DNA of 64,000 nucleotides from Mustelus asterias. Its lineage: Eukaryota. Position numbers and translations under genes: made by a program. The notes beneath the pieces are model-generated. The model did not search any database. It saw only the letters and a list, made by a program, of their open reading frames with translations, and had not been told where the DNA came from. Within the stretch, counting starts at the first letter, position 1. Each line of letters begins with the position of its first letter. The stretch is taken from positions 248,001-312,000 of the forward strand of contig NW_027590215.1 of the NCBI RefSeq assembly GCF_964213995.1, read 5' to 3'. Below, one piece after another: positions 49,063 through 60,072 of the stretch.

Positions 49063-49217
49063 CAACTGAGATTTTCCCATGCAGTGACTGTGGAAAGAGC
49101 CTCCCAGTTACACAGCCTGAAAAAATATTGCACCATCGCAGCAGGGCACTATAATCTTGTTCTGTGTGAGACTTCAACTGATGGTCAAACCTGGAGCAAC
49201 ACAAGGACACCTGCAAC

Positions 49218-50060
49218 ATGGAGAAACCGTGGAAATGTGGGGACTGTGGAAAGGGTTGCAAAACCCCCTCTGAGCTGCAAATTCATCGACGTGTTCACAC
49301 TGGAGAGAAGCCGCACACCTGTTCTGTGTGCGGGAAGGGATTCACTCGGTTATATCATCTGCAGCGACATCGGCTGGTTCACACTGGAGAAAGAGCGTTC
49401 ATCTGCTTTGAGTGTGGGAACGGATTCGCTCATTTACCTGATCTGCAGAGACACCAGCGCGTTCACACTGGAGAGAGACCATTCATCTGCTTGGTGTGTG
49501 GGAAAGGATTTATGCAGTTATCCAACCTGTCAAAACACAAAGTCACTCACACCAATGAGAAACCCTTTAAATGCTCTGACTGTGGAAATGGTTTCAAAAG
49601 CTCTCGGGAACTGATGATCCACCAGCGGATTCACACTGGGGAGAGACCGTTCAGCTGCTCTCACTGCACAAAGACATTTAGAACATCATCCCACCTGCGG
49701 GAGCACCAGCGAATTCACACCAGGGAGAGACCGTTCACCTGCTCTGTGTGTGGGAAGGGATTCACTCATTCCTCCAGCCTGCTGAGTCACAATCTCACTC
49801 ACATTCAGGAGAGACCCTTTAAATGCTCTGACTGTGGCAGTGGTTTCAAAAGTTCTCGGGATCTGGTTATCCACCAGCGCATTCACACTGAGGAGAGACC
49901 GTTCAGCTGCTCTCACTGCACAAAGAGATTTAGAACGTCATCCAGCCTGCGGGAGCACCAGCGAGTTCACACTGGGGGGAGACCATTCACCTGCTGTTTG
50001 TGTGGGAAGGGATTCACTCAGTCATCCAGCCTGCGGAGACACCAACGAGTTCACAAGTGA
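49218..50060 (+). CDS. C2H2 zinc-finger protein, 280 aa, 10 fingers
   Basis: ATG-initiated MEKPWKC ORF, all fingers canonical; acceptor ttttacag at about 48831. Confidence 0.88.
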   Translation: MEKPWKCGDCGKGCKTPSELQIHRRVHTGEKPHTCSVCGKGFTRLYHLQRHRLVHTGERAFICFECGNGFAHLPDLQRHQRVHTGERPFICLVCGKGFMQLSNLSKHKVTHTNEKPFKCSDCGNGFKSSRELMIHQRIHTGERPFSCSHCTKTFRTSSHLREHQRIHTRERPFTCSVCGKGFTHSSSLLSHNLTHIQERPFKCSDCGSGFKSSRDLVIHQRIHTEERPFSCSHCTKRFRTSSSLREHQRVHTGGRPFTCCLCGKGFTQSSSLRRHQRVHK

Positions 50061-52122: not shown

Positions 52123-53382
52123 CACCACGCTAACAAGTCTTGTTATCTGTTTTTTTTCTATTCTGTTGGCCTCAGAAGGGAACATTTTATAATTCCCACA
52201 GCATTTTAAACATTCTTTATATCTTTATAATTCTAAACGTTATAAACTTTTGTGTTCAAATTTACATTTCCAGCCTAACAACTGTATTAATGAATCATTT
52301 ATTCTTTAATTGTCTCTCAATTCAGGCTGTCCATTTAACTAATCTCCTGCTTTACAATTGTGGGAACTTCAGTCACAGATAAGGTCGGCAAATGCATTGT
52401 TAAAAGCAGGATGTTCTTTATATAAATAAATAACAAAGTTTAAAAATCATTGGCAAACAAAAGGAAACAGGAGCATTGGAACCAGCCTGGACTTGCAGAC
52501 TGAAACCCTGCCCAAAGTCCGCACGTGCTCAGAAGGGAGAGAGGTTGAGAAGAACACTCTGTAACACTTCTCCTCCCCTTAAATTTCAATCCCCCATCAG
52601 GACAGAAATACAACAAAGTAATGTCTTTAACAATACGGAAGTCTGTCAGAAGCTTTGTGGTTGCATTGCGACCTGTACAATACCACTGGTAAATCTTGTA
52701 ATGGTGTTTCTGGAATGGGAGGTGAAGAGGTAGTTTGAGAATCTGTACATAAACATTCCTCTTCCACTCCCACAGCAGAGTCAACTGGCAAAGCTGGAAC
52801 CATTTCCTGGTGAACATCCACAGCAGCATGACCCTCTGCCATGTTCTCAGGAACAGGTTGTTGACTCTGAAACTGTTCCTGACTCGGGGTCACACCGCAA
52901 GCAAATATGGTCTTAGTGGCTATGCTTAAAATTTCCACATTTAACTGGTTCCCATAAATCCTCAATTATAAAGCAAAATAGACATAAGTTTCCGGGCGAT
53001 TTAAAAACAAATTAACTTTTCTACTGAACCTAAAGGGGTGGGGAGTGAGCAGAAAAAAACTTGGCACACAATTACATCACTTTACATAATTTAAAAAATC
53101 TCTAACAACAAAACAATCTTAATTTTAAACTTCATCTATTATTCTTTTTGTTTTCTTCCTCAACCGAATTATTTTAATTTGATCAGTTTTTGTTAGGGAT
53201 GGGTCACTTCTGTTCTTTATAAACTGATTCATTCGTTTTGTTAGTTCTACATGAGAATCAGAACCCAGACTTTATCATCCTTATAAGAACATAAGAACAT
53301 AAGAAATAGGAGCAGGAGTAGGCCATCTAGCCCCTCGAGCCTGCCCCGCCATTCAATAAGATCATGGCTGATCTGACGTGGA

Positions 53383-56300
53383 TCAGTACCACTTACCCGC
53401 CTGATCCCCATAACCCTTAATTCCCTTACCGATCAGGAATCCATCCATCCGCGCTTTAAACATATTCAGCGAGGTAGCCTCCACCACCTCAGTGGGCAGA
53501 GAATTCCAGAGATTCACCACCCTCTGGGAGAAGAAGTTCCTCCTCAACTCTGTCTTAAACCGACCCCCCTTTATTTTGAGGCTGTGTCCTCTAGTTTTAA
53601 CTTCCTTACTAAGTGGAAAGAATCTCTCCGCCTCCACCCTATCCAGCCCCTGCATTATCTTATAAGTCTCCATAAGATCCCCCCTCATCCTTCTAAACTC
53701 CAACAAGTACAAACCCAATCTCCTCAGCCTCTCCTCATAATCCAAACCCCTCATCTCCGGTATCAACCTGGTGAACCTTCTCTGCACTCCCTCCAATGCC
53801 AATATATCCTTCCTCATACAAGGGGACCAATACTGCACACAGTATTCCAGCTGCGGTCTCACCAATGCCCTGTACAGGTGCATCAAGACATCCCTGCTTT
53901 TATATTCTATCCCCCTCGCAATATAGGCCAACATCCCATTTGCCTTCTTGATCACCTGTTGTACCTGCAGACTGGGCTTTTGCGTCTCATGCACAAGGAC
54001 CCCCAGGTCCCTTTGCACGGTAGCATGTTTTAATTTGTTTCCATTGAGATAGTAATCCCATTTGTTATTATTTCCTCCAAAGTGTATAACCTCGCATTTC
54101 TCAACGTTATACTCCATTTGCCATATCCTCGCCCACTCACTCAGCCTGTCCAAATCTCTCTGCAGATCTTCTCCGTCCTCCACACGATTCACTTTTCCAC
54201 TTATCTTTGTGTCGTCTGCAAACTTCGTTACCCTACACTCCGTCCCCTCCTCCAGATCATCTATATAAATGGTAAACAGTTGCGGCCCGAGTACCGATCC
54301 CTGCGGCACGCCACTAGTTACCTTCCTCCAACCGGAAAAACACCCATTTATTCCGACTCTTTGCTTCCTGTCGGATAGCCAGTCCCCAATCCACTTTAAC
54401 ACACTACCCCCAACTCCGTGTGCCCTAATCTTCTTCAGCAGCCTTTTATGGGGCACCTTATCAAACGTCTTTTGGAAATCCAAAAACACCGCATCCACCG
54501 GTTCTCCTCCATCAACCGCCCTAGTCACATCTTCATAAAAATCCAACATGTTCGTCAAGCACGACTTTCCCCTCATGAATCCATGCTGCGTCTGATTGAT
54601 CGAACCATTTCTATCCAGATGCCCTGCTATCTCCTCTTTAATAATGGATTCCAGCATTTTCCCTACTACAGACGTTAAGCTGACCGGCCTATAGTTACCC
54701 GCCTTTTGTCTCCTTCCTTTTTTAAACAGCGGCGTAACATTAGCCGTTTTCCAATCAACCGGCACTACCCCAGAATGCAACGAGTTTTGATAAATAATCA
54801 CTAACGCATCCTCTATTACCTCTGACGTTTCTTTCAATACCCTGGGATGCATTCCATCCGGACCCGGGGACTTGTCCACCTTCAGTCCCATTAGTCTACC
54901 CAGCACTGCCTCTCTGGTAACATTAATTGTATTAAGTATTTCTCCTGCTGCCAACCCTCTATCGTTAATATTTGGCAAACTATTTGTGTCGTCCACCGTG
55001 AAGACCGACACAAAAAACTTATTTAAAGACTCAGCCATATCCTCATTTCCCACTATTAACTCCCCCCTCTCGTCCTCCAAGGGTCCAACATTCACTCTAG
55101 CCACTCTATTCCTTTTTATATATTTATAAAAACTTTTACTATCATTTTTTATATTAATTGCTAGCCTAGCTTCATAGTCTATCCTTCCTTTCTTTATCGC
55201 TTTCTTAGTCTCTCTTTGTTGTTTCTTAAATTTTTCCCAATCACTTGTTTCTCCACTATTTTTGGCCACTCTGTACGCAGCTGTTTTTATTTTAATACTC
55301 TCCTTTATTTCCTTCGTTGTCCACGGCTGGTTCTCCCTTTTCTTACAATCCTTGTTTTTTGCTGGAATATATTTTTGCTGAGAACTGAAAAGGATCTCCT
55401 TAAAAATCCTCCACTGTTCCTCAGCTATCCTACCTGCCAGCCTGCTCTCCCAGTCTACCTTAGCCAATTCATCCCTCATCCTATCATATTTCCCTCTGTT
55501 CAAACAGAGGACACTGGTTTGGGACCAAACTTTCTCCTCTTCCATCTGAATCAGAAATTCGACCATATTGTGGTCACTAGACCCAAGAGGGTCCTTCACA
55601 ATAAGATCCTTAATTCTACCTACCTCGTTACACAATACCAGATCCAAAATAGCTCGTTCCCTCGTCGGTTCCGTAACATGCTGTTCAAGGAAACTATCCC
55701 GACAGCATTCTAAGAACTCTTCCTCCATTCCACCCTTACTGACTTGAGTCTGCCAGTCAATGTGCATGTTGAAGTCCCCCATGATTATTGCCGTTCCGTT
55801 TTTACACGCATCCCTTATCTGCTTGTTTATAGCCCTCCCTACCTCAACATTATTATTTGGGGGCCTATATACCACACCTACTAGTGTCTTTCTCCCTCTA
55901 CTATTCCTCATCTCTACCCATAATGATTCCACGTTTTGTTCCTCAGAGCCTATGTCATCCCTCAGTACTACCCTGATATTATCTCTTATTAATAGCGCGA
56001 CCCCACCACCTTTTCCTTCCTGTCTATTCTTCCTAAACGCCTGATACCCCTGGATATTCATCTCCCAGTCCTGGTCACCTTTCAGCCACGTTTCTGTAAT
56101 GGCCACTAGATCGTACCCACTTGTGCTGATTTGCACCATCAACTCATTTACCTTGTTCCGAATGCTTCGTGCATTCAGGCAAAGTGTCCTTATTCCAGCT
56201 TTTATCTGGACCCGCTTTGATGAGTCGCGAACACCCTCTCCCTCTACTCCCTTTTCTAAATTACCGCCTTCATTCACTTGCACCCTCTCCTCTACCATTA

Positions 56301-56388
56301 ATTTTGTAATTCCCCTTACCCCTGCATCCTCCCCCCCATCAATTAGTTCCTTGATCCTGGTCAACTCTTCTAGCTCCCCTCCCCCCAA
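53383..56388 (-). CDS. CR1 ORF2: APE endonuclease plus reverse transcriptase
   Basis: NARSI, ITETW, GGGVA, VYRPP, MGDFN, SDH (APE); KSPGPDG, LDFQKTFDKV, VPQGSVLGP, FADDTK (RT); no stops in 1001 codons. Confidence 0.96.
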   Translation of the reverse strand: MGGGELEELTRIKELIDGGEDAGVRGITKLMVEERVQVNEGGNLEKGVEGEGVRDSSKRVQIKAGIRTLCLNARSIRNKVNELMVQISTSGYDLVAITETWLKGDQDWEMNIQGYQAFRKNRQEGKGGGVALLIRDNIRVVLRDDIGSEEQNVESLWVEMRNSRGRKTLVGVVYRPPNNNVEVGRAINKQIRDACKNGTAIIMGDFNMHIDWQTQVSKGGMEEEFLECCRDSFLEQHVTEPTRERAILDLVLCNEVGRIKDLIVKDPLGSSDHNMVEFLIQMEEEKVWSQTSVLCLNRGKYDRMRDELAKVDWESRLAGRIAEEQWRIFKEILFSSQQKYIPAKNKDCKKRENQPWTTKEIKESIKIKTAAYRVAKNSGETSDWEKFKKQQRETKKAIKKGRIDYEARLAINIKNDSKSFYKYIKRNRVARVNVGPLEDERGELIVGNEDMAESLNKFFVSVFTVDDTNSLPNINDRGLAAGEILNTINVTREAVLGRLMGLKVDKSPGPDGMHPRVLKETSEVIEDALVIIYQNSLHSGVVPVDWKTANVTPLFKKGRRQKAGNYRPVSLTSVVGKMLESIIKEEIAGHLDRNGSINQTQHGFMRGKSCLTNMLDFYEDVTRAVDGGEPVDAVFLDFQKTFDKVPHKRLLKKIRAHGVGGSVLKWIGDWLSDRKQRVGINGCFSGWRKVTSGVPQGSVLGPQLFTIYIDDLEEGTECRVTKFADDTKISGKVNRVEDGEDLQRDLDRLSEWARIWQMEYNVEKCEVIHFGGNNNKWDYYLNGNKLKHATVQRDLGVLVHETQKPSLQVQQVIKKANGMLAYIARGIEYKSRDVLMHLYRALVRPQLEYCVQYWSPCMRKDILALEGVQRRFTRLIPEMRGLDYEERLRRLGLYLLEFRRMRGDLMETYKIMQGLDRVEAERFFPLSKEVKTRGHSLKIKGGRFKTELRRNFFSQRVVNLWNSLPTEVVEATSLNMFKARMDGFLIGKGIKGYGDQAGKWY

Positions 56389-56393
56389 CCTAT

Positions 56394-57323
56394 CTAGTTT
56401 AAATTCTCCCCAGTAGCCTTAGCCAACCTACCGGCCAGGATATTGGTCCCCGTGTGATTCAAGTTCCACCCGTTTTTTGTATACAGATCACCCCTGCCCC
56501 TAAAGAGGTCCCAATGGTCCAGGAACCTGAATCCCTGCCCCCTGCACCAGTCCCTCAGCCACACATTCATCCTCCACCTCACTCCATTCCTGCCCTCACC
56601 TTCCCGTGGCACAGGCAGTAATCCTGAGATTACTACCTTTGCTTTCCTCTTTCTCAGCTGTCTCCCTAATTCCCTGTACTCCTTTTTCATGACCCCTTCT
56701 CCCTTCCTACCCACATCAGCGGTACCAATATGTACCGCTACCTCAGGCTCCTCTCCCTCCCACCTCAGGATTTCCGGGACGCGACGAGCGACATCCTGGA
56801 TCCCGGCCCCAGGGAGGCAGACCACCATGCGAGAATCCCGCCTACCTCCGCAGAAACGCCTGTCTGTCCCCTTCACCATCGAGTCCCCGATTAATACCGC
56901 CTTCCTCCTCTTTTCCTTAGCCCTCTGAGTTACAGGGCTGGACTCCACTGCGGAGACACGGCCACTGCTGCTTCCCCCAGGCGGGCTGTCCCCCCCAGCA
57001 GTACTCAAGCAGGAGTACTTGTTGTGCAGGGGCAAATCCACCGGGGTGCTCTCAACCACCCTAGCCTTACCCTTCCTGGCCGTCACCCACTTGGCCTCCT
57101 CCCGTGGCCCTGGTGTGACCACCTGATGATAGCTCTTGTCTATCACCTCCTCATTCTCCCTCATCAGCCTAAGATCCTCGAGCTGCAGTTCCAGCTCCCT
57201 AACACGGTCCCTCAGGAACCGCAGCTCGACACACCCCTCACAGATGTGGATGTCCGGGAGGCCAGATGCCTCCAGGACCTCCCACATCCTACACTGGGAA
57301 CAGCACACTGGTTTCACACTCAT
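56394..57323 (-). CDS. CR1 ORF1: Cys zinc-binding motif, coiled coil, SGNH esterase-like domain
   Basis: CSQC..CEGC, LRDRVRELELQLEDL, LIGDSMV, LPGA, VHIGT, LNHTG; first ATG at 57323. Confidence 0.92.
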   Translation of the reverse strand: MSVKPVCCSQCRMWEVLEASGLPDIHICEGCVELRFLRDRVRELELQLEDLRLMRENEEVIDKSYHQVVTPGPREEAKWVTARKGKARVVESTPVDLPLHNKYSCLSTAGGDSPPGGSSSGRVSAVESSPVTQRAKEKRRKAVLIGDSMVKGTDRRFCGGRRDSRMVVCLPGAGIQDVARRVPEILRWEGEEPEVAVHIGTADVGRKGEGVMKKEYRELGRQLRKRKAKVVISGLLPVPREGEGRNGVRWRMNVWLRDWCRGQGFRFLDHWDLFRGRGDLYTKNGWNLNHTGTNILAGRLAKATGENLN

Positions 57324-59181
57324 ACTGGACACTTTATGTCAAGTAAGACCGTGAAAAGTTAATAAGAGTGTAAGGAAACAAAAACTCACCCCTGCTCGTC
57401 CAAGCCCTGTGAGCCAAAGCCCTGACAGCTCACTCAACTTCCCACTCACTCTGCTGCCCGCTACGATGCTGCCCGCTGTATACTTTGGTGCACTTTTAAA
57501 CCCTCCAAAAACTTCCCCTGGCCTCTCCTGGCCCTACTTCCGGTTATGAAAAAAACCTCCGATTTTAAACCCTTTATCTCCTTTTTATCCTTTATCTCCT
57601 TTTGCCACCACTCCCTCTGTTTTGCGGGAGGGTCGTGGGGATTCCAATCAGAACTAATCATTTTATCATAAAAGTAAAATACTGCAGATTCTGGAATCTG
57701 AAACAAAAACAGAAAATGCTGGAAAATCTCAGCAGGTCTGACAGCATCTGTGGAGAGAGAATAGAGCCAATGTTTCGAGTCTGGATGACCCTTCATAAGA
57801 GCTCTTCTGAAATGTAATCCAGACTCGAAAGATTGGCTCTATTCTCTTATCATTTTAATCAATATGTTTCTTGTTCTTAGTTTCCAAATGGCAGGTAAGA
57901 GACCTGTCCAGTCCCCAATTGAGCTCTGATTTTTCACTGGCCATGCTTGGGTAAGATTATAACTATTAGAATCTACTCTCAGAGGTCCGCTTTTCAGTCC
58001 ATTGCTACTTGGAGTATGCCGTCACTTCACCGACTATCAGGTCACAAATATATGATAAAATAATTTAAATAATGCCTGAAAACGCTTTGAACCAACTACC
58101 TATCATCGTTTGTTGATTGGTCAGACCCCCTTTTTACAGATTCAAGTATCTCAGCCGCTGAACACCAGCCAGTCCTGGAATAAGTTTAATTCTCACTCAT
58201 TCTGAGTAAATATTCTCACCAGGTCCTCTATCAGGGCCCTGCTAAGCAGCTTTCATGGTCCGTGATTGCAGAAACTGAGCAGTCACAGGAATGTGGTCAA
58301 GATAGTCCAGTCCCATAATGCCTCACATTCAATCTGCAGTCCTTCAATTATAACAGAATATGTGGCTGTGTGTAGCTGCCTCGGCCGTGGTCAACCCCAA
58401 CACTGCCTTCCTGAACTGCTACAATGCCTGAGGTGTAAGTACACCCACAGTGCTGTTAGGGAGGGATTTCCAGCTACACATTCCAGACTTTCACTGGACT
58501 GTAGGTGGATACCAGATTGATATATTCCATTCAACCACACCCAAGGTGAGTTATTCCAATTCCTTTATTGTCCAGGAAAGTATAATCACAATATCTTTAA
58601 AACAGAAATTAAACATTCCTATTTAATTTCAGGTATTAACACATTCTGTTAGTTTGTTCTTTATTGTCAAGGTCAGGCTGGGGTTGTTCCCCTTGGAGCA
58701 AAGGAGGTTGAGGGGAGATTTGATAGAGGTGGACAAGATTCGGACAGGTTTAGATAAGGTGGACAAAGAAAAGCTGTTCCCATTAGCTGATGGGACAAGG
58801 ACGAAGGGGGTGCAGATTTTGGTTCAGATATGTGGGATGGGGGGTGGAGGGGCGGGGAGGGGGGCGATGTGAGGAAGAATATTTTGATGCAGCGAATGGT
58901 AATGACCTGGAACTTGCTGCCTACGAGGGTGGAGGAAGTGGAGACAATAAACAATTACAAAGGAAATTGGATGAGCATTTGGGGGCTTTCAAACAGAAAT
59001 ACTAACTAAATATCTCTTAACTACCGAGCACCAGCCACTGGAGGCAAAATCGTGAGACCGGCCAGTCCAGCAGAAAGAAACCCTCTGACCCTCCCCATTG
59101 ACCAACTGTGAGAATGAACAAAATGCAGTCCTGGATGTAACTGAGAGCAGAAACAACAACAGCAGAATCCAACCCCTGGAA

Positions 59182-60024
59182 TCACTCGTGAATTTGCTGG
59201 TGTCTCAGCAGCTGGGATGAAACTCTGAATCCCTTCCCACACTGAGAGCAGGTGAACGGCCTCTCCCCAGTGTGAACTCGCTGGTGTGTCCGCAGGCTGG
59301 ATGAGTTAGTGAATCCCTTCTCACACTTCGGGCAGGTGAATGGCCTCTGTCCGGTGTGAACTCGCTGGTGTGTCTGCAGACTGGATGAGGCAATAAATCC
59401 CTTCCCACACTGAGAGCAGGTGAATGGTCTCTCCCCAGTGTGAACTCGCTGGTGTGTCTGCAGGCTGGAAGACTTGGTGAATCCTTTCTCACGCTGAGAG
59501 CAGGTGAACGGCCTCTCTCCGGTATGAACTCGCTGATGTTTCTGCAGGGTGGATAATTGAGTGAATCCCTTCCCACACACAGTGCAGGTGAATGGTCTCT
59601 CCCCAGTGTGAACTCGCTGGTGTGTCCGCAGGGTGGATAACTGACGGAATCCCTTCCCACACACAGGGCAGGTGAATGGTCTCTCCCCAGTGTGAACTCG
59701 CTGGTGTCTCTGCTGGTTGGATAACTGACTGAATCTCTTCCCACACACGCAGCAGGTGAATGGCTTCTTCCCAGTGTGAACCCGCTGGTGTTTCTGCAGG
59801 CTGGATGACTGAGTGAATCCCTTCCTACACACAGAGCAGGTGAATGGCCTCTTCCCAGTGTGAACTAGTTGGTGTGTCCGCAGTTCGGATGACTGAGTGA
59901 ATCCCTTTCCACACACACAGCAGCTGAAGGGCCTCTCCCCAGTGTGACTGCGTCGATGAATTTCCAGCCGAGATGGGCACATGTATCCCTTCCCACAGTC
60001 CCCACATTTCCACAGTTTCCCCAT
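59182..60024 (-). CDS. C2H2 zinc-finger protein, 280 aa, 10 fingers (7th has CSQR)
   Basis: accATGg MGKLWKC ORF; acceptor ttttacag at about 60386. Confidence 0.85.
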   Translation of the reverse strand: MGKLWKCGDCGKGYMCPSRLEIHRRSHTGERPFSCCVCGKGFTQSSELRTHQLVHTGKRPFTCSVCRKGFTQSSSLQKHQRVHTGKKPFTCCVCGKRFSQLSNQQRHQRVHTGERPFTCPVCGKGFRQLSTLRTHQRVHTGERPFTCTVCGKGFTQLSTLQKHQRVHTGERPFTCSQREKGFTKSSSLQTHQRVHTGERPFTCSQCGKGFIASSSLQTHQRVHTGQRPFTCPKCEKGFTNSSSLRTHQRVHTGERPFTCSQCGKGFRVSSQLLRHQQIHE

Positions 60025-60072
60025 GGTTCGGGTCCTTGTGACTCTGTAGTTTAAACAATCAGTTAAATCTCA

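Follow-up and report, generated by a model that had tools for sequence, protein, structure and literature searches.

A conserved slippery heptamer at the ORF1 stop codon points to programmed −1 frameshifting in esterase-type CR1 retrotransposons

Sequence comparison suggests that CR1-type LINEs of the shark Mustelus asterias likely produce ORF2 by programmed −1 ribosomal frameshifting, as a minor ORF1–ORF2 fusion protein, a reading to which we assign a probability of roughly 0.82. The slippery heptamer U_UUA_AAC lies directly before the ORF1 stop codon and is conserved at the nucleotide level, and no ORF2 start codon is conserved. Since heptamer and stop are kept together, with ORF2 one base back and usually without a start of its own, the reverse transcriptase is likely reached through a ribosomal slip.

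The element studied is a young, full-length CR1-type LINE of about 4.29 kb on the minus strand (57572-53283) of the window, the whole 64-kb stretch of DNA that was analysed. Its 5’ end falls exactly at 57572 in 20 of the 29 aligned family copies, at 98.4–99.5% identity, and both ORFs are open, in agreement with the preliminary description of an intact CR1 LINE. From this common 5’ end, a 249-nt 5’ UTR (57324..57572) leads to the ATG of ORF1 (56394..57323, 309 aa; PF13472, E 1.3e-10), which combines an N-terminal Cys motif and a coiled coil with an SGNH esterase and ends in ...GENLN*. The catalytic block of the esterase is altered, with NGWN in place of D-x-x-H and GTAD in place of GxND, and NGWNLN and HIGTAD were found in 27 of 27 family copies. 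The ORF2 frame (53383..56418, 1011 aa) comprises a 74-codon linker, an APE endonuclease and a reverse transcriptase (PF03372, PF14529, PF00078). The motif-I Asn of the endonuclease (56175-56173) aligns with residue 14 of the L1 endonuclease, and a profile search matched L1 endonuclease structures (E about 4e-9), while phmmer with the N-terminal 301 aa of ORF2 gave no match in the PDB. Pfam revealed no protease domain in the element that could cut an ORF1–ORF2 fusion. The 3’ tail (53283..53306) consists of short TTCTTATG repeats without poly(A). Proteins of rays, sharks, reptiles and birds are the nearest named relatives of ORF1, and the element is classed as a vertebrate CR1 with an esterase ORF1 on its domains and 3’ tail.

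The 3’ end of ORF1 reads GAG AAT TTA AAC TAG, which places TTTAAAC (56397..56403) in the X XXY YYZ register abutting the stop (56394..56396). As had been claimed from the letters alone, ORF2 occupies the −1 frame relative to ORF1 and is open from the heptamer onward, through the endonuclease and the reverse transcriptase. The same frame is closed five codons upstream by a TAA (56419..56421) found at this place in 27/27 family copies. The first ATG of the ORF2 frame, within KLMVEE (56296..56298), lies 34 codons past TTT AAA, close to the 35 or so estimated at first. A region of G-tracts also follows the heptamer as described, comprising a G5-N2-G3 motif (56376..56386), a G7 run (56337-56331) and two G4 runs. 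Counting both strands, the window contains 36 copies of TTTAAAC, so the heptamer alone is not rare, and the weight rests on its position and conservation rather than on its mere occurrence.

Among the ORF1 clusters sampled from the M. asterias genome, the slip site is kept in 13/13. The exact heptamer stands at the place predicted from an upstream anchor in 171 of 202 distinct copies, with nine more having it within 9 nt. Copies from 11 of the 13 clusters have a −1 frame without a stop between the heptamer and the endonuclease, the catalytic Asn being 47–78 codons away, and in most copies this frame is closed 1–13 codons upstream of the heptamer. Both the heptamer and its −1 register, whose conservation across families had been proposed as a check, are thus conserved in this genome, with protein sequences arguing for the same in birds and reptiles. 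A DGLHP-type ORF1 used as a negative-control query returned only CR1 families that were already known.

Beyond these families, a C-terminal dipeptide compatible with slippage was present in 61 of 97 distant ORF1 representatives (51 LN, 9 GN and 1 KN), against a background of 8%, and snake, swallow and turtle proteins were among them. The 36 representatives without a compatible dipeptide included 8 of the 10 of DGLHP type. Five stork gene models carry SFKLD-x-KGEG ahead of the endonuclease, which at the DNA level would correspond to T TTA AAY TAG followed by a G-rich motif. These proteins imply that bird and reptile CR1 elements share the junction. As for junction DNA from tetrapod CR1, none was found in viral contigs or plasmids, and genome contigs gave one weak, unrelated match, which was set aside. 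At 32–34% ORF1 identity, three of the four relatives with readable junctions have G GGA AAC, and the fourth has G AAT TTT.

The question of where ORF2 starts bears on the most serious of the alternatives, namely that ribosomes terminate at the ORF1 stop and reinitiate, either at an AUG in the linker or without an AUG as in L1, the heptamer being a termination or reinitiation signal. Such a mechanism is described for the bicistronic RNAs of mammalian L1 and silkworm SART1, where ORF2 depends on ORF1 translation (PMC2881922, PMC3708506, PMC5009743). It would also suit the constant adjacency of stop and heptamer and the presence of a linker Met in all 21 open copies of the family of the window element, in 7/9 of family F2, in the single open copy of F8, in half of family F1 and in the five stork models. 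In F1, whose ORF2 is the closest to that of the window element, the KLMVEE ATG is missing in 7 of 14 open copies, and 76 of 114 open copies overall have no Met ahead of the first catalytic Asn of the endonuclease. Seven clusters mostly lack one, and the position of the linker Met differs between copies that have it; in one case, L165, the −1 frame contains an ATG three codons upstream of the heptamer. The KLMVEE ATG is thus not conserved, whereas an ORF2 start at a conserved ATG there had been named as an outcome that would tell against frameshifting, and these counts do not fit a SART1-like stop-start arrangement with an AUG overlapping or adjoining the ORF1 stop. Reinitiation also leaves unexplained why the linker, despite its many lengths, is in frame back to the heptamer, why the slippery word is in register and why it is exchanged for G GGA AAC in distant relatives. 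It therefore appears unlikely, although it keeps some small share of the probability.

A lower probability attaches to protein constraint alone, according to which the heptamer would have been preserved by a required Leu-Asn at the C terminus of the esterase, with the remainder due to common descent or to an ORF2 start that overlaps ORF1. LN is indeed invariant in 22/22 sequences of a tetrapod-type alignment, which were chosen partly for that ending, and the families are related by descent. A codon-by-codon comparison of 12 families nevertheless largely refutes this explanation, since a protein requirement cannot fix TTA over the five other Leu codons, nor the wobble T of the preceding codon. 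TTA, AAC and this T are unchanged in 12/12 families, and the residue before Leu-Asn takes six values with its wobble T constant. Upstream, 20 of the 21 degenerate codons whose amino acid is invariant vary across the same families. On the tree, the heptamer sites require no change, compared with 4–8 at upstream Leu codons, the Poisson chance of zero changes at the heptamer sites being roughly 6e-5. Divergence between families in ORF1 DNA has a median of 31% and reaches 44%. Other wobble sites are invariant too (13/107), two of them close upstream of the heptamer. The ORF1 terminus, moreover, lies 7–25 residues past the anchor and changes to GN, and the closure of the −1 frame just upstream means that in most families ORF2 cannot begin inside ORF1. 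The families compared share ancestry.

Poly(A) sites are known to be followed by G-rich elements, and TTTAAA is known as a rare signal variant, so that the junction might be thought to reflect RNA processing, as a weak poly(A) signal, a CTAG splice acceptor or polymerase slippage on T and A runs, but this is the least credible explanation of all: GGGAAAC is not a poly(A) signal, the stop is TAG in 6/12 families and TAA in 6/12, which removes the acceptor AG from half of them, the single joint seen in contigs lacked splice ends and came from one run, the stretches of T and A span no more than three bases each, and neither the codon register nor a start for an AUG-less ORF2 would be accounted for.

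With regard to what might stimulate slippage, the G5-N2-G3 motif begins at +11 after the heptamer, and at each of the positions +11..+15 and +18..+20 between 11 and 13 of the 13 representatives have G. Its wobble positions are G in 13/13, 11/13 and 12/13, compared with 133/390 in the linker. The motif is a candidate stimulator. No conserved hairpin or stem was found downstream among the representatives, pseudoknots not being modelled as such: folding z-scores ranged from −1.05 to +1.45, and the consensus energy was −0.11 kcal/mol, without a compensatory pair. Searches for a long-range partner of the motif, upstream over about −1300 to +650 and downstream of the motif, returned no shared partner, the best duplexes being mostly no stronger than those of shuffled sequences and differing in position. 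A conserved G-quadruplex was considered as stimulator and rejected. Only two G-tracts are conserved, four conserved tracts at spacer distance were not found, and a two-tier G-quadruplex is predicted in 3/13 representatives. The frameshift reading of the preliminary description has thus withstood the sequence comparisons that could have overturned it, whereas its suggestion of G-quadruplex stimulation is unsupported.

The later G-tracts of the window element can be traced to its chimeric origin. Its ORF2 is 86–88% identical to that of F1, against 44% for ORF1. A second junction in the linker (56314..56348), with AAC TAA and the G7 run but without the heptamer, is, judging by its match to the F1 junction, a recombination relic from F1 as ORF2 donor. 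The extra G-tracts accordingly belong to this family alone.

Under the frameshift reading, most ribosomes would stop at the end of ORF1 and release the 309-aa protein, and a minority would slip by −1, with the heptamer occupied by the Leu and Asn tRNAs, and then read CUA GAU..., giving a 1313-aa esterase-linker-APE-RT fusion. Slippage of two tRNAs on U UUA AAC inserts Leu and Asn before CUA is read, yielding ...GENLN-LDRLGG. Of the two junction peptides first put forward, GENLK-LDRLGG would consequently arise only as a minor, single-slip product, and GENFK-LDRLGG is not expected. Such slippage would set a low ORF2:ORF1 ratio and tether the enzyme to the ORF1 particle, in the manner of Gag-Pol. 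The pause may perhaps come from the adjacent stop and the unstructured G5-N2-G3 10 nt downstream, possibly bound by protein, and from neither a pseudoknot nor a conserved G-quadruplex. A broader proposal, to which we give slightly less than even odds, is that esterase-type CR1 elements have made a Gag-Pol-like reverse transcriptase fusion by a −1 shift since before the shark–bird split, with a structure-free stimulator (the adjacent stop and a G5-N2-G3 recognised by a protein of the host or of the element) and with the slip cassette also serving as the point of exchange for ORF1 and ORF2 modules between families.

CR1 is a very common LINE, dominant in most vertebrates. If the frameshift reading is true, the commonest LINE of most vertebrates would use a retrovirus-like strategy to make an esterase-endonuclease-RT fusion, the ORF2 start would move in annotations and in CR1 retrotransposition constructs, and host factors acting on frameshifting could influence CR1 activity. 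The absence of a classical RNA structure suggests that the stimulator is an unusual one. For LINE ORF2, reviews describe translation by reinitiation in L1 and SART1. No report of −1 frameshifting in CR1 was found in the literature searched, which excluded the primary papers on turtle CR1, SART1 and L1 ORF2.

The element resembles the canonical vertebrate CR1 with an esterase ORF1 (type IVB, CR1 subgroup 7, PMC4120745; PMC13343379) in its zinc-finger/coiled-coil and SGNH ORF1, its APE-RT ORF2 and its short-repeat 3’ tail; the word frameshift occurs in neither paper. Compared with L1 and SART1, CR1 has no UAAUG overlap or conserved AUG, and at the heptamer its ORF2 overlaps ORF1 in the −1 frame. 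Among non-LTR elements, ORF2 of the Dictyostelium APE-type TRE5-A and TRE3-A depends on a −1 frameshift, according to a review legend (PMC5911963), and Drosophila HeT-A needs a frameshift in gag (PMC5009743); these belong to other clades and have other ORF1 types. Retroviral and coronaviral −1 sites and PEG10 share with CR1 an in-register X_XXY_YYZ where the structural ORF ends, with the polymerase ORF in −1, and U_UUA_AAC and G_GGA_AAC are listed among the heptamers on which mammalian ribosomes shift most readily (PMC5009743). CR1 differs from them in being non-LTR, without a conserved stem-loop or covarying stem downstream and without a Pfam protease. A further likeness, by analogy only, is to two viral sites (PMC5009743): in PRRSV nsp2, slippage is stimulated by an unstructured C-rich motif 11 nt 3’ of the site, bound by nsp1beta and a poly(C)-binding protein, and the PEMV site needs a stop just 3’ as stimulator. 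The CR1 motif, G-rich rather than C-rich, likewise begins at +11, and the ORF1 stop adjoins the heptamer.

The ORF1 of the CR1 element under study, which runs from 57572 to 53283 on the minus strand of the window, encodes an SGNH esterase of 309 residues (57323-56394, minus strand) and ends in GAG AAT TTA AAC TAG. The ORF2, with its APE endonuclease and reverse transcriptase (56418-53383, minus strand), lies in the -1 frame relative to it. The reading of this strand thus agrees with the preliminary description, in which the heptamer T TTA AAC (56403-56397, minus strand) stood directly before the ORF1 stop with ORF2 in the -1 frame. The ORF2 frame is shut by a TAA five codons 5' of the heptamer, and its first ATG comes 34 codons past TTT AAA. 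This CR1 is a young, full-length element, with 20 of the 29 family copies starting to align at 57572 at 98.4-99.5% identity, and its close ORF1 relatives that bear names come from rays and sharks. Since TTTAAAC occurs 36 times within the 64-kb window, the case for the heptamer depends on its position and its conservation. Judged from sequence, this ordinary intact CR1 carries a real and deeply conserved recoding-type signal.

The element is flanked by an imperfect target-site duplication, AAGGAGATAAAG versus AAGGATGATAAAG (57573-57585 and 53270-53282), and on either side by ORFs of C2H2 zinc-finger arrays (49182-50060, plus strand; 59182-60069, minus strand). By its appearance the window belongs to a cluster of zinc-finger genes in which numerous older fragments of CR1 are scattered. 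Two other loci, L001 (G000:C128) and L003 (G000:C112), match the window including the flanks, at 100% and 99.7% over 3504 bases, and may represent a duplicated segment or redundant assembly, possibly of one and the same insertion.

With regard to conservation, 211 loci were gathered from the same genome (3.68 Gb) by ORF1 searches and from regions hand-picked from the resulting match lists. The queries were mixed, some stopping short of the last ten residues, one being a Pfam model, some lacking the LN end and two including it, and the junction was placed by an esterase profile whose last position lies ten codons 5' of the stop. The anchor given by this profile is present in 206 loci and missing in five; the distinct loci number 202 and fall into 13 clusters, whose medoids are 13-44% apart (median 31%) in ORF1 DNA. 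TTTAAAC stands at the exact predicted place in 171 of the 202 and at most 9 nt off in nine more; the 22 copies that lack it chiefly carry single substitutions or are disrupted. The codon comparison covered 12 families and omitted L125, a cluster of one copy, because of an indel upstream. In that locus (G000:C12:51334500-51339400) the indel, 5' of the heptamer, merges ORF1 and ORF2 into one open frame of about 1290 codons, which is probably a mutation after insertion, seen in one copy.

The final two ORF1 codons are TTA and AAC in 12/12 families, and the preceding codon ends in T in all of them, though it encodes six different residues across the families (R, S, N, A, G, D). Six families use TAG as the stop and six use TAA, and 20 of the 21 upstream degenerate codons with an invariant amino acid are variable. 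On the family tree the heptamer sites show no changes, against 4-8 at upstream leucine codons (rough Poisson estimate 6e-5). As counter-evidence, invariance extends to 13 of 107 other wobble positions, never to three of them consecutively. The conservation of heptamer and -1 register among CR1 copies, which the preliminary description had proposed as a check, is found within this genome. The 13 invariant wobble positions include T at codon -9 and G at codon -4 (about 56421 and 56406), each kept in 12/12 families; the T belongs to the frequent -1-frame stop, and the pair could be a 5' context element or reflect selection closing that frame.

The production of ORF2 by -1 ribosomal frameshifting at the heptamer is likely, at a probability of about 0.82. 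Most ribosomes would terminate after Leu-Asn, while in a minority both tRNAs would slip back by one base and CUA GAU would be read next. A slip of two tRNAs determines the residues at the junction, so the predicted product would be a 1313-residue fusion reading GENLN-LDRLGG there; what the sequences show is the layout, the conservation and the lack of starts, and the slippage, its rate, the fusion protein and the stimulator are proposed.

Reinitiation in place of frameshifting appears improbable. In 11 clusters, 114 copies keep the -1 frame free of stops between heptamer and endonuclease motif, two clusters having no open copy, and the motif-I Asn, the first catalytic Asn of the endonuclease, lies 47-78 codons from the heptamer. 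A conserved ORF2 ATG downstream, which would have spoken against frameshifting, was not found: 76 of the 114 open copies have no Met ahead of this Asn (32/32, 14/14, 8/9, 6/6, 5/6, 1/1 and 1/1 in seven clusters, and 7/14 in family F1). A Met is mostly present in the window family (0/21 Met-less), F2 (2/9) and F8 (0/1), at differing places. As this Asn corresponds to residue 14 in L1 endonuclease structures, a start further downstream would truncate the domain. Upstream of the heptamer the -1 frame is shut within 1-13 codons, with no ATG, in most copies, with some exceptions in F8, F9 and F10.

Frameshifting also agrees with evidence from beyond this genome. Close ORF1 homologues end in LN in 23 of 30 cases, and two indel-fused ones run through FKL into ORF2. 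Among 150 distant representatives, 111 have the anchor and 97 end 7-25 residues past it; 61 of these 97 close with a slippery-compatible dipeptide (51 LN, 9 GN, 1 KN), against a background of 8%. In the DGLHP type, to which a loach family belongs, the ending is compatible in 2/10 only, and LN endings occur in snake, swallow and turtle proteins. Four distant proteins (P0085, P0115, P0135, P0150) end in FF plus one residue, as a U-rich heptamer set one codon ahead of the stop would allow. An endonuclease motif is present in seven of 26 long proteins inspected; in five stork gene models SFKLD-x-KGEG precedes the endonuclease, with a Met in the linker, and FKLD together with a zero-frame L-N-stop implies T TTA AAY TAG, as deduced from proteins rather than DNA. 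Of five loci from metagenomes, at 32-34% identity in ORF1 as measured for three of them, three close ORF1 with G GGA AAC, in one case with an additional codon ahead of the stop; a fourth has G AAT TTT TAG and the last ends too early. Where the contig is long enough (L165, L169), the -1 frame is open as far as the endonuclease; L169 has no Met in between, and L165 carries linker Mets as well as an ATG three codons 5' of the heptamer. A heptamer that is swapped with position and frame retained is expected from slippage, not from protein constraint.

A stimulator of slippage may lie just 3' of the heptamer, in the motif G5-N2-G3 (56386-56376, minus strand). Counted from the end of the heptamer, G stands at +11 to +15 and at +18 to +20 in 11-13 of the 13 representatives, the -1-frame wobble G within the motif is kept in 13/13, 11/13 and 12/13, against 133/390 in the linker, and conservation fades near +24. 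No conserved stem-loop was found in the 13 representatives (z -1.05 to +1.45; consensus -0.11 kcal/mol; no compensatory pair), and a search for a shared long-range pairing partner of the G motif gave none in common. The G-quadruplex proposed earlier is not borne out, a two-tier one being predicted in only 3/13 representatives and the extra G-tracts of the window family tracing to an F1 junction.

That family is, by its identities, a chimera of an F5-like ORF1 (73% identical to F5, 44% to F1) and an F1-like ORF2 (86-88% to F1, about 46% to F5), joined just past the G motif. The stretch 56348-56314 (minus strand) matches the F1 junction with the heptamer gone, and the extra G-tracts, by the same comparison, are of separate origin, through that junction. 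The comparison concerns the region 56314-56386 (minus strand), where the dead F1 junction is retained, and the loci L084, L175, L219 and L220. Contigs from three other runs diverge from the window at 56377, immediately 3' of the first G motif, consistent with a crossover there. The esterase catalytic block is lost in 27/27 window-family copies, with NGWNLN for DGLHLN and GTAD for GTND (56474-56457 and about 56733-56716, minus strand), and F1 has DGLRLN in 18 of 25 copies. As a young family with open ORFs has spread recently without the catalytic His, the sequences suggest that esterase activity is dispensable.

Among the papers listed by full-text literature searches, none deals with frameshifting in CR1; the first publications on CR1 of chicken and turtle may have proposed it. 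Of two papers that name CR1, ribosomal frameshift and retrotransposition together, the one checked speaks of ALV in its passages. The literature consulted further comprised PMC2881922, PMC9004415, PMC3708506, PMC2734521, PMC3905857, PMC4120745 and PMC13343379. With regard to stimulation, the relevant passages of a review (PMC5009743) know of no natural G-quadruplex stimulator and offer two precedents for structure-free stimulation, a protein-bound motif 11 nt downstream in PRRSV and a stop immediately 3' of the shift site in PEMV. Furthermore, a -1 frameshift is stated for Dictyostelium TRE5-A and TRE3-A in a passage of PMC5911963, so that the mechanism appears to have a precedent among non-LTR elements.
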